DNA from: a virus
Taxonomy: Duplodnaviria > Heunggongvirae > Uroviricota > Caudoviricetes
Virus record (IMG/VR): IMGVR_UViG_2877953467_000003
Location: 1 to 40,358 of that record
DNA: 40,358 nt
Strand: one strand, 5' to 3'
Part shown: positions 4,386 through 40,358 of the stretch, one piece after another
Layout: the number at the start of each line of letters is the position of its first letter
How positions within the stretch are numbered: position 1 is the stretch's first letter
Program-made: the position numbers and the translations under genes
The notes under the pieces: generated by a model
The model's input: only the letters and a program-made list of their open reading frames with translations
Database searches by the model: none
Told to the model about the DNA's origin: nothing

Positions 4386-5434
4386 GAAATCGTCCCCAGT
4401 ACCGCCAGTTCATTTTTCGCAATGGAGATATTGTCCGCCGGTGCCAGCAACTGATGGCTGTATTCCCCGTTCGCACCGGAAATCGCCTCACTGATACGTG
4501 ACACCTTCAGTTCTCCCTGCGGATAACCATCACGCAGCAAAAACGAACGTAACTCCGCGGTGATGGCAGCCCGTATTTCCGGTGTGTCCGGCGTCACATG
4601 GATATGAAAATCCACCGTATGCGCCACCGGCCTGAACACATACAAATCAGAGCCTGCCACCGGGGCCAGTGGCTCGATATGTTGTCTTGCCGCCGTTTCC
4701 GTTGATTCTTCCGGAATGGGATTAATCAGGTCACTGCTGGCAATCATCACACCGACAGTCCCCGTTCCCATCCAGTGACGGTATGTCCATGCGCGGGTAA
4801 TGCCGGGCACTTCTTTAGCCCAGACGACATAGTCCCCGTCAGCCCCGCCCTGCGGCGTCCAGTAATACCGCTCAATGACGCGGGCGCGCCACGTTTCCAG
4901 CTCTTCAGTATCAAATCCGCCTGTAAGGGTGTCAGCCACACCGGAAGACGGCAGACCATTCACCGGCGTGACCAGGATTAATGCCGTACCGTCGTCAGCG
5001 TTACCGACCGCACCTGCACTTGAGCAGGCGATCGGCACGCGCAGGACACCACCGGAGCTGGTTGCATCGGCAGTTGCCGTGTACTGAACCAGGTCATCGC
5101 GCTGAATAACACTCCCGGCGGTCACCTTCAGGCCATCGCTGACACCTTCCCAGCGCATATACCCGCTGGCAGCCGTGGCCCCCTTGCGCGGACACCGTTT
5201 CATCGCAGCATGTCGCGCCAGCCAGGACTCATCGCACAGGTCAGGCAGCATATTCATTGCCAGATAATCGATGTACCCGTAAACCGTATGCAGCGCCGCC
5301 GCATACACCTTTGCCCGCACGTCTTCATCCATGCGCCGGAGCGTGTCGCTGACGTCCAGCCTGGCGAATAAATCGTTACGGAGCATACTGATATTTTCTG
5401 CCAGCGTCGGGCGCTGAAATTCACTGTCCGCCAT
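4376..5434 (-). CDS. Baseplate J-like protein (Mu gp47-like)
   Basis: 352 aa; synteny within the Mu-like baseplate cluster. Confidence 0.7.
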
Positions 5435-5849
5435 GCGTTATCGCACTCCACAGATCATCAAAAGAAATCATTACCGGTCCGTCACGACGCCAGAGAGTGA
5501 TACTGTTACCCAGCTCATTAATCCCGGTGCGGCGGATATCCAGATCAATACGGGACACCACGCCGTCATCAATCATCCATTGCAGGCATTCGCGGATATA
5601 CCCCCTTACCGTCTGCACCAGCTGATTGGTCAGTTTGCTGCGCTGAAGCAGCCACAGTCGGGAGCCGTAACGGTCATTCTGTACCGCAGGCCAGGTATCC
5701 CCCCACCATCCCATCGGGACATCGGCGTTGTCATCAGGCTCCGCCCGCCGCCAGGTAAACAGGGAAATCACCACGGCGCGGGTCAGCGGATCCAGCTGTG
5801 CGCTGGCGCAGGTGCGTTTACCGTTCACCGTCAGCCACAGTTCCATCAT
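5421..5849 (-). CDS. Baseplate protein (Mu gp46-like, gpW/gp25-like)
   Basis: 142 aa; synteny between the spike and J-like genes. Confidence 0.6.
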   Translation of the reverse strand: MMELWLTVNGKRTCASAQLDPLTRAVVISLFTWRRAEPDDNADVPMGWWGDTWPAVQNDRYGSRLWLLQRSKLTNQLVQTVRGYIRECLQWMIDDGVVSRIDLDIRRTGINELGNSITLWRRDGPVMISFDDLWSAITHGGQ

Positions 5850-6394
5850 GCCTCCATCGCTTTATCAGGTTTGTCGGTGTTACTGCCCTGACCGTTCTCT
5901 CTGTGACGATGCCCGTTATAGGCAAGCCGCATCGCTGACATGGTGGTACCGCTGGAGTCGCACAGGTCTTTCACCTGTCCTGTCACTTCCAGGTCCATTT
6001 CAAAACGTGCTTTAGGTGAATTGCGAAACGTGATCGTTTTACCTGCACCGTCCACCACGATCCCCTCCCGGGTCAGCGTCACGGACTGCCCCTGATCGTC
6101 ATAGACAGCCACCTCACCCGTCTGCAGCCCTTTCAGGCGGTAGCGCCGGTCCGACACCGTAACAACCACCGCATGAGAACGGTCGCCATCCGGAAACAAC
6201 ACCACCGCTTCCGCACCGCTGTTTGCCCTTGCGGTAAAACCATAGGGTTCAAGATGTTCAACCCCGGCTTTGGGTTCACCGGCAATCAGGGACACATCCA
6301 CGGTCTGGCATTTCGTGGCGGCACTGATGCTTTTCACCACTGCCCGCCCAATCAGGCCGAGAAGTTGTCGCTGCATGGCTTCAATCGTCCTCAT
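5846..6394 (-). CDS. Baseplate assembly protein V / spike (Mu gp45-like)
   Basis: 182 aa; synteny; start overlaps the stop of the upstream gene. Confidence 0.65.
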   Translation of the reverse strand: MRTIEAMQRQLLGLIGRAVVKSISAATKCQTVDVSLIAGEPKAGVEHLEPYGFTARANSGAEAVVLFPDGDRSHAVVVTVSDRRYRLKGLQTGEVAVYDDQGQSVTLTREGIVVDGAGKTITFRNSPKARFEMDLEVTGQVKDLCDSSGTTMSAMRLAYNGHRHRENGQGSNTDKPDKAMEA

Positions 6395-26400: not shown

Positions 26401-27851
26401 CAGAATCCCCCTTTCTTCTTGGACTGCGGTTCCTCGCGTTCACGTCGGCGCATTTCAGCAGACTGTTGGTCTGTGTCATAAATAGCGCCATTTGCCTGAA
26501 TGCAATACACCGTGCCGGTATTGCCATGACGATTGAGACGAAGGATTAGTTCGGTTTCACCAGGTGGAACACTGTCATCAAAAGCACCTTCACGATGGAT
26601 CCCCACCCAATAATCGCAATCCTGTTCAATCTGCCCTGTATCTCGCGAGTCACTTGGTAATGGGCGTTTATTGGTTCGGCTTTCCAGTGCGCGGTTAAGC
26701 TGTGTCAGAAGCACAACAACGCAATCAAGCTCTTTGGCAAGGTTCTTCAGTCCTTTGGTGATCATGCCGTAAGCAAGGTCGTTGCGATCGGCCTTCTCAG
26801 CAGTCATTAGTGTCAGGTAATCGACCAGAATCATGCCAACACATCCTTTTTCTCGCTTGATTCGACGGCTTTCGCTAACGATTTGAGCCAGAGATAATCC
26901 CGGCGTGTCGTCGATGTATAGCAGGTCGATTTCACTCAAACGATTAGCTGTTTCGATCGCCCTGTTGAAGTCACCATCGTAATCACCCTGATAGCCGTCA
27001 TCAGCGTCATTTGTCGCCGGAAGGTAAAAAATATTCGGGTTAACACCTGACTTCTGTCCCACCAGTTTTTCCAGTATCTGGTCACCTGGCATTTCAAGGC
27101 TGAACATCAGAGCGGGCTTTTTCTCATGCACTGCGCAGTTGATTGCCATCTGGCTGTATAGCGTCGTTTTCCCCATCTTAGGGCGAGCGCCAATGACAAA
27201 CAGAGAGCCTTTCACCAGACCTTTCGGTGACAGCATCCTGTCCAGCGATGGGATCCCTGTGCTCATTCCTCGTTGTTCGCCTGACGGGTCAAATCGCTTC
27301 TCAAGGTCGCTAACCCAGTCTTCCATGACCTCACCAAATGAGCGAAGGCCGCGACGCGATCCGGTTTTTGCATGGTCTGTCAGTTGCGTGAAAATCGCCT
27401 GAATAGCTTCGTACTTCTGCGTTGCAGTCATTCCGTTGCGGGAATATAGCAATTCCGTCGCTTCAGTCATGCGGTTGATGGCGTAGCGTTCCATTGCGGT
27501 TTCGCGAACCTGCATTGCATAGGCAACGATGTTTGCGGCGCTTGGCGTGTTCTTTGCGATCTCAGCGATATAAGCAAAACCGCCAACAGACGCCGTTAAC
27601 GATTTACGCTCCAGTTCATCGAAAAGCGTCAGGCCATCTACTGGCTTTTGCTCCCGGTGCATTCTGGTTATTTCTTCGAAAATGATTTTGTGTGGTCGGC
27701 TGTAAAATGAATCAGGCTTCAGCATCGCCAGAACTTTCTGGACGCGCTCACTGCTGTCATCATCCAGAAGCAATCCACCAATCACCGCCTGCTCTGCCTC
27801 GATGCTATGGGGCGGCGCATAAAAATTATCGGTCATCGTGTTCACCCTCAC
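26400..27851 (-). CDS. Replicative DNA helicase (DnaB family, P22 gene 12-like)
   Basis: 483 aa; N-terminal DnaB domain (SIEAEQAVIGGLLLD) and C-terminal RecA-like ATPase (GARPKMGKTT Walker A). Confidence 0.85.
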   Translation of the reverse strand: MRVNTMTDNFYAPPHSIEAEQAVIGGLLLDDDSSERVQKVLAMLKPDSFYSRPHKIIFEEITRMHREQKPVDGLTLFDELERKSLTASVGGFAYIAEIAKNTPSAANIVAYAMQVRETAMERYAINRMTEATELLYSRNGMTATQKYEAIQAIFTQLTDHAKTGSRRGLRSFGEVMEDWVSDLEKRFDPSGEQRGMSTGIPSLDRMLSPKGLVKGSLFVIGARPKMGKTTLYSQMAINCAVHEKKPALMFSLEMPGDQILEKLVGQKSGVNPNIFYLPATNDADDGYQGDYDGDFNRAIETANRLSEIDLLYIDDTPGLSLAQIVSESRRIKREKGCVGMILVDYLTLMTAEKADRNDLAYGMITKGLKNLAKELDCVVVLLTQLNRALESRTNKRPLPSDSRDTGQIEQDCDYWVGIHREGAFDDSVPPGETELILRLNRHGNTGTVYCIQANGAIYDTDQQSAEMRRREREEPQSKKKGGF

Positions 27852-28716
27852 GAACTTTCAGGTATGTATTATCGTTAAGCAGGAAATCAAATCCCTTTTT
27901 GTGCCAGACGGTTCCGCGCTGATGGTTTGGGCGCTCTTCGAACATCCATCGGCAATTTTCGCCTACGTAGCTCAAATAATTTCTCCAGTCCTGCATCGTG
28001 AACCCATGCCCGTCAAGCTGGCGGGTTATCACTCCGGCTTTGCGCCAGAACGTTCGGATCTGGTTTTTACGCTTGTCATTCAGTGCGCGGATTCTTGGCG
28101 CTTCAGGAAGGATTTCGTGGTAAGCATCGACAACATCCTGACAGCTAACGGAAGGTTTTTTCTTGTCAGACTTTTTGTCTGCTGTGGCACTCTCTAATAC
28201 GTCAGTATTAGAGATATTATTTATATTATTGTTTATGGACAACCGTTGGACAACCGTTGGACAATCTCCGCTGAGAGCCGCGCCATTACTGCTGTTTGCG
28301 TTGGACAACCGTTGGACAACCGTTGGACAATTTTTTGCCTGAAAATCGTCATATTTAACGATTGTAAACAGGCTAAATTTCTTCCCCATCGAGCAAATAT
28401 TAAGCATTCCTTTCGACTCAAAAGTCCGCAATAAGCTCCGAACTTTGTTGTCGGGGATGAATGTTTCTCTGACCAGCGACGGGCGTCCAGTTATCATCTG
28501 ACCGCGATCAACAGTTATCGGACCGATATCCGTATTGACGACAGTAGATTCGTGATTAGCCTTGAGGATTAAGTGAAGCCAAAGATGTACTGCCTGAGAG
28601 TCCTTATAGAGCCTGCTGTCCATAAACTGGCGGTGTATAGAGACATACCCCATACTGGATGCCTCCTGATGTTGTACAGGGTTATGCCTGTAATCAGCTA
28701 ACTTAACGACGCCCAT
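27826..28716 (-). CDS. Replication initiator protein (lambda O / P22 gene 18-like)
   Basis: 296 aa; iteron repeats inside the coding region (repeated peptide CPTVVQRLS); upstream of helicase with overlapping ends. Confidence 0.75.
   Translation of the reverse strand: MGVVKLADYRHNPVQHQEASSMGYVSIHRQFMDSRLYKDSQAVHLWLHLILKANHESTVVNTDIGPITVDRGQMITGRPSLVRETFIPDNKVRSLLRTFESKGMLNICSMGKKFSLFTIVKYDDFQAKNCPTVVQRLSNANSSNGAALSGDCPTVVQRLSINNNINNISNTDVLESATADKKSDKKKPSVSCQDVVDAYHEILPEAPRIRALNDKRKNQIRTFWRKAGVITRQLDGHGFTMQDWRNYLSYVGENCRWMFEERPNHQRGTVWHKKGFDFLLNDNTYLKVREGEHDDR
28237..28380. repeat. Phage replication origin: two clusters of three 11 bp iterons plus AT-rich region
   Basis: CCGTTGGACAA x3 at about 28240-28265 and x3 again at about 28300-28330, followed by AT-rich stretch; within the O-like gene as in lambda ori. 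Confidence 0.7.
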
Positions 28717-29295: not shown

Positions 29296-29529
29296 TTATG
29301 CTGCTGATGCTCTACGCGATACGAACACCAGGTTTTCCTTTTTCACGGGTTTATAAGCCGTGAAATTACGAGTAGCTTCTTCGATTGCATTCGCTTTATC
29401 AGGGGAAGCTCTTCGAAATCCATATGCAATCTGGTCAAGATAGCCAACTGAAGTTTTCGCTAATGCGGCGAGTCGCTTCCATTCCTCACTAGAAGCCTCT
29501 TTTCGCCAGCGTAGTAGTTCATTACTCAT
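29296..29529 (-). CDS. Cro-like HTH regulator
   Basis: 77 aa, divergent from cI across the operator region; helix-turn-helix-like segment. Confidence 0.55.
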   Translation of the reverse strand: MSNELLRWRKEASSEEWKRLAALAKTSVGYLDQIAYGFRRASPDKANAIEEATRNFTAYKPVKKENLVFVSRRASAA

Positions 29530-29642
29530 TAGTGCCTCCGTTTATCATACAGAATAACTTTACCATTTTGATAAATCAACTGCAATGTAAATTTATCATA
29601 TTGCGTATTTATCCATTTGCTAAATAGAGGGAGAATTGTGAG
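29530..29642. promoter_or_regulatory. Immunity operator/promoter region (OR, pR/pRM)
   Basis: 113 bp AT-rich divergent intergenic region with repeated TTTATC(A) half-sites (e.g. 29541-29557, 29608-29624). Confidence 0.5.
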
Positions 29643-30347
29643 ATGGAAAACAAAGATATTCGCAAATCGAATCTGGCGTTTTTGCTAGATGAGCATAAAA
29701 AAATCGCGGGTAACACTAATGCAAGCTTTGCCGATAAGCTTGGGGTTAGCCCTTCTCAACTCACGCAAGTCTCCGGTGAAAAAAGCACTCGAAACATAGG
29801 GGATAAACTAGCAAGAAAATTTGAAGCTGCACTTGGGTTACCTAATGGGTGGCTTGATTTGGTACATGATGTAACACCAATTGCATCATGCTCAGATTCT
29901 TTAACTTTTGTAGGTCAGGTAAGAAAAGGGTTAGTGCGCGTGGTTGGTGAGGCAATTCTTGGTGTTGATGGTGCCATCGAGATGACCGAAGAGCGCGATG
30001 GGTGGCTCAAAATTTATAGCGATGATCCAGATGCCTTTGGTCTTCGTGTGAAAGGAGACAGCATGTGGCCCAGAATAAAATCAGGAGAATATGTACTCAT
30101 TGAGCCTAACACCAAAGTATTCCCGGGTGATGAGGTGTTTGTCAGAACCGTTGAAGGACACAACATGATTAAGGTTCTTGGCTATGACAGAGATGGAGAA
30201 TACCAATTTACAAGCATTAACCAGGACCACAGGCCAATAACGTTGCCTTATCATCAAGTAGCAAAGGTGGAGTATGTGGCTGGTATTCTGAAGCAATCTC
30301 GCCATCTGGATGACATCGAGGCAAGGGAGTGGCTGAAAAATTCGTGA
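29643..30347 (+). CDS. CI prophage repressor (HTH plus S24 LexA-like peptidase domain)
   Basis: N-terminal HTH; C-terminal autocleavage domain with GDSMWP serine motif. Confidence 0.85.
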   Translation: MENKDIRKSNLAFLLDEHKKIAGNTNASFADKLGVSPSQLTQVSGEKSTRNIGDKLARKFEAALGLPNGWLDLVHDVTPIASCSDSLTFVGQVRKGLVRVVGEAILGVDGAIEMTEERDGWLKIYSDDPDAFGLRVKGDSMWPRIKSGEYVLIEPNTKVFPGDEVFVRTVEGHNMIKVLGYDRDGEYQFTSINQDHRPITLPYHQVAKVEYVAGILKQSRHLDDIEAREWLKNS

Positions 30348-30513
30348 CTTCATCGTCACATAGCTGGTAGCCAGTGGCCTGAAGAGACGTTTGGGTAATT
30401 CCAATTGTGATTTATGAACAGTCAATTCCGCCAGATTGGTGATGATGACAAGCCGCTATGGCTTAGCTTCAACATGAATACATTCATCGTAACCACAGCA
30501 GGGAGTTTAACGA

Positions 30514-31518
30514 ATGAATTCTATTGAAAATCATGATGTTTATGTGTATACAGGCGATATTCATCGTGATGGTTATCTTGATCTCACCAATGAAATCAAG
30601 AAACGTAAGTCACAACATGGATTAAAAGAGAATGTTATCTTCTGTGTTGCTACTTATGGCGGTGATCCAAATGCAGGTTATCGTATAGGTAGAGCTCTAC
30701 AGCACCATTATGAAACGGTAACACTTTTAGTTGTTGGACCATGCAAAAGTGCTGGTACACTAATAGCTATAGCAGCCAATAAACTTGTTATTGGTGACAT
30801 GGGGGAGCTTGGGCCATTAGATATCCAACTGAAAAAAAACGATGAAATAGGTGAGATGAGTTCTGGTTTAGCTATCATGACAGCTCTTGATGCTCTAAAG
30901 GAACGCTCTATTTCAGCGTTTAACTCACACCTTGTTAAGATAAGATACGAAAATCAGATAAGTACCAAAATGTCTGCTGATATCGCGACCAGACTTACAG
31001 AAGCGTTGATAGCACCTATGGCCGCACAGATAGATCCAATAAAGCTTGGTGAACATCAGCGCGCAATGAGTATAGCTATCACTTATGGCCAACGATTAGC
31101 AGACAAACCAAGCAGCCTAAAAGAAGGGGCGTTAGGCAAACTAATAGCCTCATATCCTTCACATGGATTTGTTATCGACAGAAAAGAAGCCAAGGAACTT
31201 TTCAAGTGTGTTGAACATCCTGAAGGCATAACAGAAATACTCTATAATCTTTTCTGTGACAAAATTCATAGTGGTGAAATTCCAACATTTGGAAAGCCAA
31301 GAGTAATGGATTTCACTGTTTCCCAACAAGATAAAGAGGAATACACTAATGCCGAAGAATCTGCAACCGGAGATGGAAGTTCTCAACAGGATGCTGGAAA
31401 GCCAGATCCAGGAAGGTCGCGATCTGGCAAGAAAAGCGGAACAACACCTGAACGAGATCAAGAAGGAATTGGAGCCGTATCAATTCAACCACCAGATGAA
31501 CAGCAACCTAATGCGTGA
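30514..31518 (+). CDS. ClpP/S49-like serine peptidase family protein at the rex-equivalent position
   Basis: 334 aa; ClpP/crotonase-like motifs (VATYGGDPNAGYRIG, GPCKSAGTLIAIAANK) plus polar disordered C-terminal tail; AT-rich gene; family assignment from motif recognition only. Confidence 0.55.
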   Translation: MNSIENHDVYVYTGDIHRDGYLDLTNEIKKRKSQHGLKENVIFCVATYGGDPNAGYRIGRALQHHYETVTLLVVGPCKSAGTLIAIAANKLVIGDMGELGPLDIQLKKNDEIGEMSSGLAIMTALDALKERSISAFNSHLVKIRYENQISTKMSADIATRLTEALIAPMAAQIDPIKLGEHQRAMSIAITYGQRLADKPSSLKEGALGKLIASYPSHGFVIDRKEAKELFKCVEHPEGITEILYNLFCDKIHSGEIPTFGKPRVMDFTVSQQDKEEYTNAEESATGDGSSQQDAGKPDPGRSRSGKKSGTTPERDQEGIGAVSIQPPDEQQPNA

Positions 31519-31548
31519 TCTCTTTGCTCTGTAATTAATTCCTCACAT

Positions 31549-31574
31549 CCCGGCCTCAGCGCCGGGTTTTCTTT
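31549..31574 (+). terminator. Intrinsic terminator after the peptidase gene
   Basis: Perfect hairpin CCCGGC-ctcagc-GCCGGG followed by TTTTCTTT. Confidence 0.55.
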
Positions 31575-31755
31575 GCCTCACGATCGCCCCACCTAAAAAC
31601 ACATAACCAATTGTATTTAGTGAAAAATTGATAAATACAACTTGCTAAACCACGCAATCCAGATCTCCCTCAAGCCTCTTCATTTCTCCTGTCGAATTCC
31701 TGCAACAAAAATAAAACACCATGAAAATCAATATGATATTTTAAAATCAAAGAAA

Positions 31756-31797
31756 TTTATCATTTTGCTATTGCCATTAATTTATCATTTCGATAAA
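31756..31797. promoter_or_regulatory. OL operators / pL region
   Basis: 17 bp sites with TTTATC half-sites (31756-31772; 31781-31797, inverted repeat TTTATC-N5-GATAAA) sharing the OR motif. Confidence 0.45.
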
Positions 31798-31836
31798 GTT
31801 TACCCATCAGCAGGACGCACTGACCACCATGAAGGT

Positions 31837-31869
31837 GAGGCTCTTAAAAATTAAGCCCTGAAGAAGGGC
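31837..31869 (+). promoter_or_regulatory. nutL site (boxA-like GCTCTTAA and boxB GCCCTGAAGAAGGGC)
   Basis: Near-identical to lambda nutL as recalled; perfect boxB hairpin. Confidence 0.75.
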
Positions 31870-32067: not shown

Positions 32068-32400
32068 ATGGATGCACAAACACGCCGCCGCGAACGTCGC
32101 GCAGAGAAACAGGCTAAATGGAAAGCAGCAAATCCCCTGTTGGTTGGGGTAAGCGCAAAACCAGTTAACCGCCCTATTCTCTCGCTGAATCGCAAACAGA
32201 AATCACGAGTAGAAAGCGCACTGAATCCTATAGACCTTACAGTGCTGGCTGAATACCGCGAACAGATTGAAAGCAACCTGCAACGTATTGAGCGCAAGAA
32301 TCAGCGCACATGGTACAGCAAGCCACGCTGTGAAATGGGTGTGACTTGCTCAGGCCGCCAGAAGCAACGCGGAAAATCAATTCCAGCTTATTACGATTGA
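32068..32400 (+). CDS. N: Antitermination protein N
   Basis: Begins MDAQTRRRERRAEKQAKWKAANPLLVG (arginine-rich motif), recognised as near-identical to lambda N; downstream of nutL. Confidence 0.9.
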   Translation: MDAQTRRRERRAEKQAKWKAANPLLVGVSAKPVNRPILSLNRKQKSRVESALNPIDLTVLAEYREQIESNLQRIERKNQRTWYSKPRCEMGVTCSGRQKQRGKSIPAYYD

Positions 32401-32408
32401 GGTGAGCC

Positions 32409-32546
32409 ATGCTCAAGAAAGTCAAACGCCGACTTTACAAAGAAGGTAGATATTCATGCCAGTTGCCAAAATGCGACACAACAAAATGGAGTGTCGATGA
32501 TTGGTGTAACTGGATAGATAGATACGGAACTTGGTGGAATAAATAA
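32409..32546 (+). CDS. Small Cys/Trp-rich hypothetical protein (about 45 aa)
   Basis: Hand-translated MLKKVKRRLYKEGRYSCQLPKCDTTKWSVDDWCNWIDRYGTWWNK; RBS-like GAGGTGAG upstream; below ORF-track cut-off. Confidence 0.3.
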   Translation: MLKKVKRRLYKEGRYSCQLPKCDTTKWSVDDWCNWIDRYGTWWNK

Positions 32547-32600
32547 CAGGTAACTTAAGCGTATTTACTTTCGCAGCAAACCACTTATTTGAGGTGAGAT

Positions 32601-33071
32601 ATGACAAAATCATGGAGCGTACCTTTTCCTGAATCAGAAACTGAACATGATGGAATGCCTGTTTTCTGGAGATTCCAGGCGACAGTTGAAGAAGATGGAA
32701 TCAAAATATTCGCACTTCAATATATAGCTTTTCATCAGACAGAGCATTATGCATGGTTGGTTCCTGCGCATTGGATTGTTAATTTTAAACCAGCACCAAA
32801 TCAGTGGTTACAGGAATGGAAACAAAAGAGAAATAGATATGCAATTAAGAAAGTAGCAAAAAATGCAGAAAGATCTTTTGCATTCCCAACGAAGAAACTT
32901 GCTATTGAAAGTTTATTGCGTCGGAAGAAATACCATTTAATGAGAATCAAACAAGATTTGGCTGTTGTATCAACTCTTGTTGATGGGATGAAGAATATTG
33001 ATACATCAACACCAGATATTGAATATAACTTTGGGCACAACCAAGAAACAGAAAATTGGGTATTTTATTAG
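32601..33071 (+). CDS. Hypothetical protein (AT-rich accessory gene downstream of N)
   Basis: 156 aa ORF with GAGGTGAG RBS; no recognisable motifs; AT-rich codon usage. Confidence 0.5.
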   Translation: MTKSWSVPFPESETEHDGMPVFWRFQATVEEDGIKIFALQYIAFHQTEHYAWLVPAHWIVNFKPAPNQWLQEWKQKRNRYAIKKVAKNAERSFAFPTKKLAIESLLRRKKYHLMRIKQDLAVVSTLVDGMKNIDTSTPDIEYNFGHNQETENWVFY

Positions 33072-33214
33072 TACGAGTAAGCACTGTGTATTCATTCCAA
33101 CGAGTGAATACACGGAGCAATGTCGCTCGTAACTAAACAGGAGCCGACTTGTTCTGATTATTGGAAATCTTCTTTGCCCTCCAGTGTGAGGGCGATTTTT
33201 TTGATGGAGGATAT

Positions 33215-34183
33215 ATGAGTGAAGTAACAGATTTAGTTGTTATTGAAAAAGCAAATGCAATGACTGTATTTCAGTCTGCCGACCAGATTGAAGAAATTCT
33301 CCAAAAGGTTGAACGTGAAGTTATGTCCTTTGTGCCTGATATCACAACGGCAAAGGGCAGAAAGGAGATCGCTTCTCTGGCGTATAAAGTTGCGCAGACG
33401 AAAACATATCTCGATGGTCTTGGCAAAGACCTTGTTGCTGAACTGAAGGAAATTCCAAAGCTAATTGATGCCAACCGCAAGACAGTGCGTGATCGACTTG
33501 ATGAGCTGAAAGCCAAGGCGCGCCAGCCTCTTACTGATTATGAGGAGGAACAGGCACGGATTAAAGCCGAAGAAGAAGCTAAGGCAGCAGCTGAAGCTCT
33601 CGCAAAGCAAATTGAGTCTGACCATGAAATAGCGATTTTGATGGATCGCGAATTTGACCGCCAAAGAGAAGAGGCAAGACTCAAAGCGGAGCAGGAAAAG
33701 CGAGAGCATGAAGAACGCTTAAAAAGAGAAGCTGAAGAGAAAGCCAGAGCAGAAGCCGAAGCAAAGGCAAAAGCCGAAATTGAAGCAGCAGCAAGGCGAG
33801 AAGCAGAAGCTAAGGCCGCAGCGGAACGTGCAGAGCGTGAACGCATTGAAGCCGAGCAACGAGCACAGCGCGAAGCAAAAGAGGCAGCAGAACGAGCTGA
33901 AAAAGAAAAGCAGGCAGCAATTGAAGCAGAACGCAGAAAAGCACAGGAGGAGGCTGAACGAATCCGGCGCGAGGCTGAAGCAAAAGAGCAAGCCAGAATA
34001 GCAGAAGAAAAAAGAATCAAGGATGAAGAAGAGCGTAGAGCAAAGGATAAAGCTCACCGGAAAGAAGTAAATAACAAAATACTTGCTGACCTTATCAAGG
34101 TTGGCGCATCAGAAGATGTTGCTAAAAATATCATAATAGCCATCGTAAAAGGCGAAGTATTCGCAACAAAAATAACCTACTAA
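33215..34183 (+). CDS. Hypothetical protein with long E/R/K/A-rich helical (coiled-coil or single alpha-helix) region
   Basis: GGAGG RBS before ATG at 33215; about 120 aa N-terminal domain, about 170 aa charged repeat (AEAKAKAEIEAAARREAEAK), short C-terminal domain. Confidence 0.6.
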   Translation: MSEVTDLVVIEKANAMTVFQSADQIEEILQKVEREVMSFVPDITTAKGRKEIASLAYKVAQTKTYLDGLGKDLVAELKEIPKLIDANRKTVRDRLDELKAKARQPLTDYEEEQARIKAEEEAKAAAEALAKQIESDHEIAILMDREFDRQREEARLKAEQEKREHEERLKREAEEKARAEAEAKAKAEIEAAARREAEAKAAAERAERERIEAEQRAQREAKEAAERAEKEKQAAIEAERRKAQEEAERIRREAEAKEQARIAEEKRIKDEEERRAKDKAHRKEVNNKILADLIKVGASEDVAKNIIIAIVKGEVFATKITY

Positions 34184-39110: not shown

Positions 39111-40358
39111 CTATATTGCTGAAGGTACAGGCGTTTCCATAACTATTTGCTCGCGTTTTTTACTCAAGAAGAAAATGCCAAATAGCAACATCAGGCAGAC
39201 AATACCCGAAATTGCGAAGAAAACTGTCTGGTAGCCTGCGTGGTCAAAGAGTATCCCAGTCGGCGTTGAAAGCAGCACAATCCCAAGCGAACTGGCAATT
39301 TGAAAACCAATCAGAAAGATCGTCGACGACAGGCGCTTATCAAAGTTTGCCACGCTGTATTTGAAGACGGATATGACACAAAGTGGAACCTCAATGGCAT
39401 GTAACAACTTCACTAATGAAATAATCCAGGGGTTAACGAACAGCGCGCAGGAAAGGATACGCAACGCCATAATCACAACTCCGATAAGTAATGCATTTTT
39501 TGGCCCTACCCGATTCACAAAGAAAGGAATAATCGCCATGCACAGCGCTTCGAGTACCACCTGGAATGAGTTGAGATAACCATACAGGCGCGTTCCTACA
39601 TCGTGTGATTCGAATAAACCTGCATAAAAGACAGGAAAAAGTTGTTGATCAAAAATGTTATAGAAAGACCACGTCCCCACAATAAATATGACGAAAACCC
39701 AGAAGTTTCGATCCTTGAAAACTGCGATAAAATCCTCTTTTTTTACCCCTCCCGCATCTGCCGCTACGCACTGGTGATCCTTATCTTTAAAACGCATGTT
39801 GATCATCATAAATACAGCGCCAAATAGCGAGACCAACCAGAAGTTGATATGGGGACTGATACTAAAAAATATGCCGGCAAAGAACGCGCCAATAGCATAG
39901 CCAAAAGATCCCCAGGCGCGCGCTGTTCCATATTCGAAATGAAAATTTCGCGCCATTTTTTCGGTGAAGCTATCAAGCAAACCGCATCCCGCCAGATACC
40001 CCAAGCCAAAAAATAGCGCCCCCAGAATTAGACCTACAGAAAAATTGCTTTGCAGTAACGGTTCATAAACGTAAATCATAAACGGTCCGGTCAAGACCAG
40101 GATGAAACTCATACACCAGATGAGCGGTTTCTTCAGACCGAGTTTATCCTGAACGATGCCGTAGAACATCATAAATAGAATGCTGGTAAACTGGTTGACC
40201 GAATAAAGTGTACCTAATTCCGTCCCTGTCAACCCTAGATGTCCTTTCAGCCAAATAGCGTATAACGACCACCACAGCGACCAGGAAATAAAAAAGAGAA
40301 ATGAGTAACTGGATGCAAAACGATAGTACGCATTTCTGAATGGAATATTCAGTGCCAT
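39111..40358 (-). CDS. cscB: Sucrose:H+ symporter (LacY-family oligosaccharide permease)
   Basis: 415 aa, 12-TM MFS protein with LacY-like N-terminus; recognised as CscB; ORF start coincides with window end. Confidence 0.8.
   Translation of the reverse strand: MALNIPFRNAYYRFASSYSFLFFISWSLWWSLYAIWLKGHLGLTGTELGTLYSVNQFTSILFMMFYGIVQDKLGLKKPLIWCMSFILVLTGPFMIYVYEPLLQSNFSVGLILGALFFGLGYLAGCGLLDSFTEKMARNFHFEYGTARAWGSFGYAIGAFFAGIFFSISPHINFWLVSLFGAVFMMINMRFKDKDHQCVAADAGGVKKEDFIAVFKDRNFWVFVIFIVGTWSFYNIFDQQLFPVFYAGLFESHDVGTRLYGYLNSFQVVLEALCMAIIPFFVNRVGPKNALLIGVVIMALRILSCALFVNPWIISLVKLLHAIEVPLCVISVFKYSVANFDKRLSSTIFLIGFQIASSLGIVLLSTPTGILFDHAGYQTVFFAISGIVCLMLLFGIFFLSKKREQIVMETPVPSAI

Follow-up and report, generated by a model that had tools for sequence, protein, structure and literature searches.

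Results

Organization of the immunity region

The stretch of DNA analysed here in its full length of 40,358 nucleotides, referred to below as the window, is a lambda-like prophage of Escherichia coli in which a gene for a ClpP-like peptidase adjoins the repressor gene. A cro-like gene of 77 aa (29296–29529, minus strand), recognized as an ORF and from the Cro annotation in phages of the same immunity type, is divergent from cI. OR operator half-sites (CATTTTGATAAAT and ATTTATCATATTG) form an inverted repeat at 29564–29603, and the same motif appears again at OL. The cI gene (29643–30347, plus strand) encodes an S24/LexA-type repressor of 234 aa (Peptidase_S24, E = 3.8e-16) of the H-19B/BP-4795/mEp506 immunity type, with 98% nucleotide identity to the cI of mEp506. 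It is followed on the plus strand by a cargo cassette (30399–31541) which, as indicated by blastn, takes the place of hicA-hicB-hicC of phage mEp506. The cassette consists of a leader (30399–30513), a gene for a ClpP-fold ‘SDH-type’ serine peptidase of 334 aa (30514–31518; core residues 1–275, tail residues 279–334) with GGGAG located 8 nt upstream of its ATG, and an overlapping small gene in the +1 frame (31349–31534, plus strand), predicted from its evolutionary signature and a helix model to encode a protein of 61 aa, MPKNLQPEMEVLNRMLESQIQEGRDLARKAEQHLNEIKKELEPYQFNHQMNSNLMRDLFAL. A Shine-Dalgarno-like GAGGA (31336–31340) is present 8 nt 5′ of the ATG of the small ORF.

Downstream on the same strand are an intrinsic terminator (31549–31574), composed of a hairpin stem with six G-C pairs (31549–31566) and a T tract (TTTTCTTT), then the OL operators (31625–31636, 31754–31770 and 31779–31795) together with a pL-like promoter (31771–31799), the whole spanning 31625–31799, and a nutL boxB-like hairpin, GCCCTGAAGAAGGGC, at 31855–31869. 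The latter was identified by sequence on the plus strand, the hairpin scan having flagged the opposite strand, and we take it to be boxB by analogy with lambda nutL. A lambda-type N antiterminator gene of 110 aa (32068–32400, plus strand; Pfam N36, E = 1.5e-25) completes the region.

Thus, as an earlier note on this DNA had proposed, an ORF of 334 aa on the cI strand, opposite to the cro-like ORF, occupies the rex-equivalent slot between cI and the terminator, OL/pL, nutL and N, and the order of terminator, operators and nutL after the gene was likewise as described there. The AT-richness reported for the gene was also found, its GC content of 40.6% lying below those of cI (44.3%) and of the window (50.3%). 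The same note had counted a single gene in the slot; this did not hold, as two overlapping genes are present.

Promoter scanning of the leader revealed no recognizable sigma-70 promoter and no site on the plus strand, and a promoter internal to the cassette was rejected since the scan found none. Neither was a plus-strand terminator found 3′ of cI in the scan. The cassette is presumably transcribed by read-through from cI (pRM). As the peptidase/small-ORF module is devoid of a visible promoter and precedes the immunity terminator, co-transcription with cI in the lysogen is most likely.

The cassette is mobile and recurs behind prophage repressors

Blastn homology to mEp506 ends at position 30398 and resumes at 31542. 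In mEp506 the toxin–antitoxin–chaperone system HicA/HicB/HicC is located at exactly this position, and phages of the same immunity type hold either HicA/HicB/HicC or a HigB toxin system in this slot instead. The terminator was rejected as a part of the cassette since it is shared with mEp506 and belongs to the backbone common to mEp506/H-19B-type phages. Judged by these sequence comparisons, the module is horizontally mobile cargo, and the separate acquisition suggested in the earlier note is reflected in cassette boundaries that could be set at 30399 and 31541 against mEp506 of the same immunity type.

The gene was present in 28 of 5426 E. coli genomes, 933 of which match some part of the 1.3 kb query that included the flanks. 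IMG/VR contained 124 confirmed relatives, and a plasmid collection yielded only three matches, two of them in records of ∼4 Mb. Homologues directly downstream of prophage repressors were found in Alpha-, Beta- and Gammaproteobacteria, with the linkage observed for two different cI types in E. coli and also in Rac-like prophages of Klebsiella and in Bartonella. The upstream neighbour was on the same strand at 86 of 120 loci and was a Peptidase_S24 protein in 25 of these; ∼70% of the upstream neighbours were not recognizable repressors. A near-identical protease gene was located behind a repressor with a different N-terminal part, the homology starting at position 29920 within cI; in Klebsiella the gene is placed behind a non-S24 CI, and in a P2-like Burkholderia phage it follows int. 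No conserved downstream partner gene was detected across the homologous loci.

The 334 aa protein has a ClpP-type fold with Ser79 as candidate nucleophile

Profile and structure comparisons both revealed the ClpP-like α/β core fold of the ClpP/SppA/NfeD group. The two motifs to which the earlier note had drawn attention, VATYGGDPNAGYRIG and GPCKSAGTLIAIAANK, are present in the protein and contain residues invariant in 68 homologues, the invariant positions being G49, G50, R57, C77, K78, S79, G81 and T82. Within the invariant C77-K78-S79-A-G-T motif, the codon of Ser79 lies at 30748–30750 on the plus strand. CKS79AGT aligns with AAS97MGA of ClpP, in which Ser97 is the nucleophile, and with AASAGT of NfeD, and the structure model places Ser79 at the N-terminus of helix 80–87, in a small-residue elbow. 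The ClpP/S49-clan fold and the candidate nucleophilic serine put forward from the sequence are therefore supported, with Ser79, on the basis of the alignment and the model, as the candidate.

In the profile search that had been suggested as a check, Pfam PF01972 (SDH_protease) and NCBIfam NF047768 were the best matches; they scored 29.6 bits against a curated cut-off of 31.3 and 36.7 bits against a curated cut-off of 250, respectively; as both scores are below the curated thresholds, the family assignment is made from a weak profile match together with structure. The Pfam alignment covers residues 44–108 only, and most homologues carry a precomputed PF01972 match, labelled ‘weak’ wherever a label is given. 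Among the viral structures of BFVD the closest neighbours were SDH proteinases, with ranks 1, 3, 4, 6 and 9–13 annotated as ‘Serine dehydrogenase proteinase’ (E = 1e-7 to 6.5e-6). The orthologues in E. coli bear the RefSeq name ‘SDH family Clp fold serine proteinase’, and the family comprises 1372 clusters of 50% identity at E ≤ 1e-30.

The candidate general-base and acid residues K108, H217, D103, D174 and D222 are fully or almost fully conserved in the 68 homologues, and the His position of ClpP is not conserved in the 334 aa protein. ClpP employs His and Asp at this step, and SppA/NfeD a Lys; here the candidates for the general base are the invariant His217, paired with Asp103 or Asp174, and Lys108. 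Profile alignments end at residue 85–108, short of the general-base region, and the order Ser79 … Asp103/Asp174 … His217 was observed by sequence alone. In the SDH-type family the catalytic residues follow the order Ser-Asp-His, according to the Pfam description.

The C-terminal ∼56 residues of the peptidase are predicted to be disordered (pLDDT ∼50). No hydrophobic or membrane segment was seen on reading the sequences of either product of the cassette. The idea that the peptidase is a paralogue of the prohead protease of this phage, or a decoy of it, expressed in the lysogen, was considered and rejected, as the prohead protease is an S78, HK97-type enzyme of a different fold. A literature search found no functional study of this SDH-type/ClpP-like family and no described biological role for any SDH-type (PF01972/NF047768) member.

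A second gene is overprinted on the tail-coding region

The small ORF (31349–31534) overlaps the last 56 codons (279–334) of the protease gene and ends 16 nt past the protease stop, so that both frames are open over ∼170 nt. An ORF in the +1 frame was present in 120 of 129 distinct homologous loci across phyla, with a median length of 61 aa and an interquartile range of 56–65 aa, and embedded variants come in addition to these. In most relatives the second frame is open and has a start signal to itself: 70% of the loci possess an ATG accompanied by a Shine-Dalgarno-like motif, as against 21% under synonymous recoding as the null; the GAGGA is also conserved in the Klebsiella phage ST13-OXA48phi12.4. 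The relatives exhibit overlapped, embedded and nearly separate architectures. In the nearly separate form the start of the small ORF precedes the stop of the protease by 14 nt, and in the lineages that carry it the protease has only 274 aa and no tail.

In the overlap region substitutions are most frequent where the +1 frame has its wobble position. Mismatch rates by codon position of the protease frame were 0.335/0.179/0.160 in the tail compared with 0.175/0.081/0.527 in the core, and the tail pattern was alike in non-enteric clades (0.299/0.193/0.215). Likewise, dN/dS within the overlap was 0.10–0.40 (about 0.15) for the +1 frame and 0.22–3.2 (mostly 0.6–3.2, about 1) for the protease frame. 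Peptides of the +1 frame were conserved with a mean z-score of 8.7, compared with 2.3 for the tail peptides that these nucleotides specify in the protease frame (core-identity bin 0.60–0.75). A test of the antisense frame led to rejection of a gene on the opposite strand as the origin of the codon periodicity. Given the +1 peptide, an open protease frame is improbable (median P = 0.018), and an open +1 frame is fairly likely from the hydrophilic composition of the tail alone (median P = 0.37 per locus). The small peptides contain clade-specific conserved motifs, and the 61 aa peptide was modelled as one long helix with a pLDDT of 85.8.

The shift in codon position, the dN/dS values, the peptide conservation and the exclusion of an antisense gene together demonstrate purifying selection on the second frame. 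These comparative data show that the second reading frame is real and that the locus holds an overprinted gene pair, the second member of which is predicted to be translated. By the same signature, the constrained product of the dual-coding region is the 61 aa helical protein and the tail is the weakly constrained frame. The ‘long disordered tail’ of the earlier note is thus retained as far as predicted disorder is concerned, but the region also encodes a constrained protein in the +1 frame.

Pfam and PHROG scans of four of the small peptides returned nothing meaningful, as did a Pfam scan of an upstream ORF of 37 aa. When six-frame translations of all loci were searched iteratively with an HMM of the small peptides from enteric bacteria, the 15 enteric loci and no others were recovered, and hhalign between the clade alignments of the small protein gave no significant homology (P = 0.007–0.5). 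A single ancient small-protein family can therefore not be claimed from sequence, and as homology across clades is not demonstrable at this level, it is position, length and frame, and not sequence, that speak for one ancient partner gene.

Two other explanations of the second frame were weighed. The +1 ORF might be silent, its conservation arising from tail composition or from a constraint on the RNA or DNA, in which case the slot would contain only one gene, for a protease ending in a disordered tail. A hydrophilic tail lacking T at codon position 2 does leave the +1 frame easily open (P about 0.37), GAG-GAA codons for Glu-Glu mimic Shine-Dalgarno motifs, and gene callers almost never report the ORF, which is annotated only sporadically and always as hypothetical (nine clusters among 5.8 billion). 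Composition, however, cannot explain the displacement of substitutions to the +1 wobble position, nor a dN/dS of about 0.15 against about 1 in the protease frame, and the clade-specific motifs with tightly distributed lengths, the enrichment of the start signal, the confident helix prediction, the excluded antisense alternative and the lineages with an almost separate small gene and a tail-less protease all argue against a silent frame, which we consider improbable. Alternatively, a programmed +1 ribosomal frameshift could join the two frames into a protease with a helical C-terminal domain, in keeping with the ∼170 nt over which both frames are open and with the conserved frame being +1. Against this, the conserved peptide begins with a start codon that is itself conserved together with a Shine-Dalgarno-like motif; moreover, no slippery motif was seen on reading the sequence, a +1 stop at 31304–31306 leaves only 14 open codons upstream of the ATG, and a small ORF that begins 14 nt before the protease stop fits poorly with a fusion, making a frameshift highly improbable.

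Discussion

A two-gene cargo module in the cI–N slot

The slot between cI and N of lambdoid prophages is the home of rexAB, bstA and toxin–antitoxin–chaperone systems. Because it hosts such systems, and because the gene recurs behind prophage repressors in distant bacteria, its occupant in the present prophage is, by analogy, a strong candidate for an uncharacterized lysogen-expressed function. The explanation that we favour, and regard as quite possible though short of probable, is that the slot contains a mobile two-gene cargo module with a role in exclusion, abortive infection or addiction. Its first gene would encode a soluble ClpP-fold SDH-type serine peptidase with Ser79 as the candidate nucleophile, and its second gene, sitting entirely within or just past the tail-coding region of the protease, a single-helix protein of 61 aa read in the +1 frame from a GAGGA-ATG of its own. 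The small protein may be the dedicated partner of the protease, either as an inhibitor (antitoxin-like) or as a substrate. We infer that both proteins would be expressed in the lysogen and interact, and that infection would disturb their balance, whereupon an active protease would cleave a host or phage target and produce the defence phenotype. A role in defence or abortive infection is plausible from the location and by analogy. A wider and rather doubtful version of this proposal is that SDH-type proteases with an overprinted helical partner of 55–65 aa constitute a widespread two-component system, a prophage immunity or addiction module driven from the repressor operon and a class of protease-based defence; the second gene would then have been overlooked in annotation, as long overlaps on one strand are rejected by gene callers.

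Two other roles for the module have to be set against the exclusion or addiction module. The protease and a dedicated substrate might serve the physiology of the host cell, comparable to NfeD and its operon-encoded stomatin, and the pair would then be a fitness or virulence moron with no part in phage–phage conflict. This appears unlikely, as the family is strongly phage-associated (124 relatives in IMG/VR compared with the three plasmid-collection matches), neither a membrane segment nor a stomatin-like partner was found, and sister phages hold toxin–antitoxin or abortive-infection systems in the slot. The module could also be an accessory of the lysis–lysogeny switch, in which the protease would act on the S24 repressor, on its fragments, or on regulators of the CII, Cro or antirepressor type, resembling the bias exerted by RexA. 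Its recurrence immediately 3′ of S24/HTH repressors in distant bacteria speaks for such a role, and lambda RexA and RexB, encoded in the same slot, are reported to modulate the switch (10.1101/2021.04.19.439022; PMC11077077). Yet the same cI, cro and operators (98% identity) work in H-19B, BP-4795 and mEp506 with wholly different cargo in the slot, a near-identical protease is found behind a repressor with a different N-terminal part and, in Klebsiella, behind a non-S24 CI, most upstream neighbours (∼70%) are not recognizable repressors, and in the P2-like Burkholderia phage the gene is placed after int; a switch accessory thus seems to us quite unlikely.

More concrete than this candidate function is the hidden gene, whose predicted product is a helical mini-protein hardly ever listed by standard annotation. 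What was already known is a protein family with a RefSeq name; what is new is the overlapping second gene, missed by annotation. Cloning or knocking out ‘the protease’ alters the partner gene too, and some substitutions of a single base abolish one frame while leaving the protein of the other unchanged, which provides a genetic handle on the pair. Long disordered tails in compact genes of mobile elements are worth checking for overprinted genes.

Comparison with known systems

No family of the PADLOC-DB v2.0.0 defence models matched at E ≤ 1, no defence gene was consistently adjacent among the homologous loci, and scans with Pfam, PHROG, NCBIfam and PADLOC revealed neither Rex nor BstA families. 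The impression of the earlier note that the configuration was not a characterized system is thus upheld with regard to known defence systems, but the protein itself belongs to a family that is large and already named in RefSeq. The peptidase is alike to SDH-type proteinases in its best profile matches, its structural neighbours and the Ser … Asp … His order of its candidate catalytic residues, and the present subfamily differs from them by a helical insertion (residues 118–197), the disordered tail and the overlapping partner gene. Sequence similarity to ClpP (S14), SppA (S49) and NfeD/1510-N is marginal (E about 0.02–0.2) and, in contrast to these, the 334 aa protein lacks a His where ClpP has it and is without either an ATPase partner or a membrane anchor.

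The Rz/Rz1 pair of lambda likewise has one gene overprinted on the other in the +1 frame, and embedded, overlapped and separated forms of such pairs occur. The spanin genes thereby resemble the pair described here, whose relatives are likewise embedded, overlapped or separated, although the proteins and their function are unrelated and the pair is located in the immunity region instead of the lysis cassette.

With lambda rexA/rexB and with BstA of the Salmonella prophage BTP1 the module shares the slot, being placed 3′ of cI in the same orientation and ahead of the N operon, in a region known as a hotspot of mosaic diversity that is expressed in lysogens (PMC8585504). Like Rex, it is flanked by cI and OL/pL and has the orientation of cI, and it has no homology to RexA/RexB and no membrane-channel partner; by the scans above, neither Rex nor BstA is related to the 334 aa protein in sequence or fold. 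The abortive-infection gene bstA, downstream of cI, carries its own self-immunity element, aba, inside the gene (PMC8585504); there the embedded element is DNA, whereas here it is a protein-coding frame. A serine-protease toxin module with anti-phage activity has been described in ietAS (PMC13069673), and although IetS is a different type of protease with an ATPase partner, both are two-gene cargo of mobile elements in which one partner is a serine protease, co-transcription being predicted for the module presented here.

Results

The window is a complete lambdoid prophage with an integrase gene (1209-2402), an HK97-type head module (terminase, portal, S78 protease and capsid genes) and a lacY-like host gene at 39111-40358. 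Its immunity region comprises a cro-like gene (29296-29529, minus strand), OR half-sites (29564-29603), an S24-type cI (29643-30347, +), the 334-aa ORF of the protease (30514-31518, +), a hairpin of six G-C pairs followed by a T tract (31549-31574), repeated operator half-sites (31625-31636, 31754-31770 and 31779-31795), a pL-like promoter (31771-31799), a boxB-like hairpin, GCCCTGAAGAAGGGC (31855-31869), and a lambda-type N gene (32068-32400). The ORF, cI, hairpin with T tract, OL operators and nutL all lie where the earlier note had placed them, and the protease gene is AT-rich as it had claimed, with 40.6% GC vs 50.3% in the whole window. As neither a terminator nor a promoter was found on the + strand between cI and the protease gene, co-transcription of the latter with cI from pRM would be the simplest reading of the sequence. 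The cI stop codon lies within a hairpin, CGTGACTTCATCGTCACA (30343-30360), that scores as terminator-like on the minus strand only, in which sense it would stop leftward transcription entering cI; it belongs to the backbone common to phage mEp506.

Elsewhere in the window, 11-nt direct repeats, TGGACAACCGT, form two clusters at 28225-28342, reported by the repeat search as six overlapping 30-nt copies; they sit within a replication-protein O-like gene (27826-28716, minus strand) and are presumably origin iterons. Directly 3' of N is a second AT-rich stretch (32400-33200, GC 0.36-0.40), containing a 156-aa ORF (32601-33071, +) that had no Pfam match and may be another cargo gene. A 340-aa ORF (33161-34183, +), likewise without a Pfam match, contains a long, extremely charged E/A/K/R-rich stretch of coiled-coil-like appearance, with AT skew up to 0.65.

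Profile matches of the protease were mutually consistent yet sub-threshold: Pfam SDH_protease (E 4.6e-7, 29.6 bits, below its gathering score of 31.3), Pfam NfeD1b_N and CLP_protease (both about 1e-3), and NCBIfam Clp_like_SDH (3e-9) and ClpP-related head maturation protease (2e-8). PHROG 21683, a family of unknown function, matched at 1e-179, and the PADLOC models gave no match. An AlphaFold2 model built with 68 homologues as input (mean pLDDT 81.6) was confident over core residues 1-275 and of low confidence in the loop 101-117 and, from about residue 278 on, in the tail. Foldseek against the PDB returned the same ClpP-fold class, and the best matches among viral structure models were giant-virus "Serine dehydrogenase proteinases" (E 1e-7). 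In alignments, C77-K78-S79-A-G-T falls on the nucleophile motifs of ClpP and NfeD, and C77, K78, S79, G81, T82, E98, G100, P101, L102, D103, Q105, D174, H181, R183, Y214, H217, D222 and R223 are invariant among the 68 homologues (41-93% identity to the window protein). Because the structure searches agree, the motif aligns and these residues are invariant, the predicted ClpP fold and the candidate nucleophile Ser79 are well supported. As general base, either His217 together with an Asp (Ser-Asp-His order) or Lys108 could serve. The family numbers 1372 clusters at 50% identity (E<=1e-30), is carried by 28 of the 5426 complete E. coli genomes and is already called "SDH family Clp fold serine proteinase" in RefSeq; the protease is a divergent member of a named, functionally uncharacterised family.

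The homologue in Klebsiella phage ST13-OXA48phi12.4 is 81% identical, and in the alignment the tail DNA was better conserved than the gene body. This alignment revealed a +1-frame ORF of 61 aa (31349-31534, +) whose GAGGA, ATG and stop positions are kept between the two phages and whose substitutions are conservative; in the window it begins at protease codon 278/279, the onset of the disordered tail. We sampled 163 loci from genome and viral collections, giving 129 distinct protease sequences, 120 of which carry a +1-frame ORF of 35-100 aa spanning the protease stop (median 61 aa, IQR 56-65; median overlap 137 nt). The E. coli-type small peptide is found in only nine of 5.8 billion protein clusters, always as "hypothetical".

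Because T is scarce at codon position 2 of a hydrophilic tail, stops in the +1 frame are rare anyway. This compositional null is real, the probability of an open +1 frame given the tail peptide being about 0.37 per locus. Tail composition fails, however, to explain the conservation, substitution, start-signal, antisense and helix results. In the 0.60-0.75 core-identity bin, the +1-frame peptides reached a mean z of 8.7 vs 2.3 for the tail peptides encoded by the same nucleotides, with 72% vs 16% of pairs at z>5. Mismatch rates at protease-frame codon positions 1/2/3 were 0.175/0.081/0.527 in the core and 0.335/0.179/0.160 in the tail, and therefore peak in the tail at the +1-frame wobble position; the non-enteric clades gave tail rates of 0.299/0.193/0.215. 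Within the overlap, the +1 frame had a Nei-Gojobori dN/dS of 0.10-0.40, and the protease frame one of 0.22-3.2 (mostly 0.6-3.2). An ATG preceded at the correct distance by a Shine-Dalgarno-like motif was present in 70% of loci vs 21% after synonymous recoding, and the small peptide was modelled as a single helix (residues 3-60; pLDDT 96-98 over 11-30 and 95 over 31-40). The antisense frame, which shares the wobble positions, was rejected as the source of the signal, being stop-free in only 15% of loci. Conversely, the probability of an open protease frame given the small peptide had a median of 0.018 per locus, and therefore both frames are kept open. These comparisons show constraint on a second reading frame with its own putative start signals. 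Where the earlier note had seen a single gene in the slot, the 334-aa gene is indeed present and is very probably one of two overlapping genes.

The two ORFs overlap in most loci. In five (L006, L012, L071, L121 and L125, among them Bartonella and several metagenome-assembled genomes) the small ORF is fully embedded in the protease gene. In two Rhodothermales loci (L050 and L066), with a short protease of 287-298 aa, a conserved small ORF downstream of the protease lies in the +2 and not the +1 frame and reads …SPSLRELLN(A/S)QQD(S/I)FQRALGG…; the partner gene appears to be retained despite the different overlap frame. The Acinetobacter ursingii protease (274 aa) lacks the tail and consists of the structured core only; there the small gene, routinely annotated as hypothetical protein, is almost separate (14-nt overlap). 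The small proteins form many clade-specific families with clear internal motifs, such as ...LEPYQ(F/Q)xNQM in the enteric one, M(R/K)TYQTPxxVxxA(L/M) in the largest cluster (18 loci, Burkholderia included) and QxxQMxKAxEFARMV in a third; homology between clades was not statistically demonstrable.

Phage mEp506 has the same cI, cro and operators (98% identity), and its homology to the window ends at 30398 and restarts at 31542. The cassette (30399-31541) therefore begins with a leader of 115 nt, contains both ORFs and ends 7 nt beyond the small-ORF stop. The terminator noted earlier after the gene is present, but lies outside the cassette in the backbone shared with mEp506. That phage carries it (31549-31566) at 90% identity, and between the window and Klebsiella phage ST13-OXA48phi12.4 both stem sides differ (CCCGGC/GCCGGG vs CCCAGC/GCTGGG) with pairing kept. 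The leader contains a 37-aa ORF, MNSQFRQIGDDDKPLWLSFNMNTFIVTTAGSLTNEFY (30414-30527, +), which has no Pfam match and whose last 14 nt overlap the start of the protease gene. A small ORF (71 aa, 14-nt overlap) likewise precedes the homologue in the Klebsiella phage, but cannot be aligned with the one in the window.

The slot holds hicA-hicB-hicC in mEp506 and a HigB-family toxin in BP-4795 and related Stx phages. In relatives 76-78% identical in DNA, homology is confined to the stretch from just past the start codon to the small-ORF end, and a 98.7%-identical copy of the protease gene follows a cI with a different N-terminal part. In Klebsiella Rac-like prophages, homologues 56-60% identical again follow the CI repressor directly, on the same strand, and one in Bartonella (L174) lies 78 nt 3' of an HTH-S24 repressor. 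Across 120 loci the upstream neighbour was on the same strand in 86, matched Peptidase_S24 in 25 and Cro/C1-type HTH domains in up to 17, and downstream neighbours were mixed (N, integrases, GmrSD, IS1 and others). Family members are frequent in viral contigs (124 confirmed relatives); the plasmid collection gave only three matches, two in records of about 4 Mb. Comparison of these loci shows the module to be mobile cargo recurrently placed in prophage repressor operons.

In the Bartonella chromosome (L174, 1078-5984), the protease homologue and two HTH-S24 repressor genes adjoin ordinary transporter genes, and the called genes had no phage-family Pfam matches; the locus could be the remnant of a prophage or, alternatively, a repressor-protease unit that stands alone. 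In the P2-like Burkholderia phage vB_HM387, a 36%-identical homologue (4908-5978) follows the integrase gene close to where the genome record ends, a cargo position different from the cI-N slot, and also carries a 61-aa +1 ORF.

Discussion

We infer that the two products work together and that the pair acts in the lysogen. The protease would have a dedicated small partner, either inhibitor or substrate, and the pair would function in exclusion, abortive infection or addiction. As a whole, this model is put forward tentatively, as close to evenly balanced, and a defence or addiction function as such is possible though somewhat doubtful. The model draws support from the other occupants of the slot, rexAB and bstA (PMC8585504) and HicA/HicB/HicC, and from protease-toxin precedents such as ietAS (PMC13069673). 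Within the same fold class, NfeD acts on its operon partner and SppA binds C-termini in its active site (4kwb).

The two-gene anatomy has as rivals a small ORF that is not expressed and a +1 frameshift that fuses the two frames. As to function, a protease-substrate pair might instead serve host physiology. A role as accessory of the lysis-lysogeny switch is disfavoured, since this immunity module also works in phages with other cargo in the slot, and the protease is found behind different repressors.

With an overprinted partner gene, the protease gene represents an unreported architecture, and the module adds a new occupant to a known hotspot. It is like rexAB and bstA in position and like lambda Rz/Rz1 in architecture, but is homologous to none of them.
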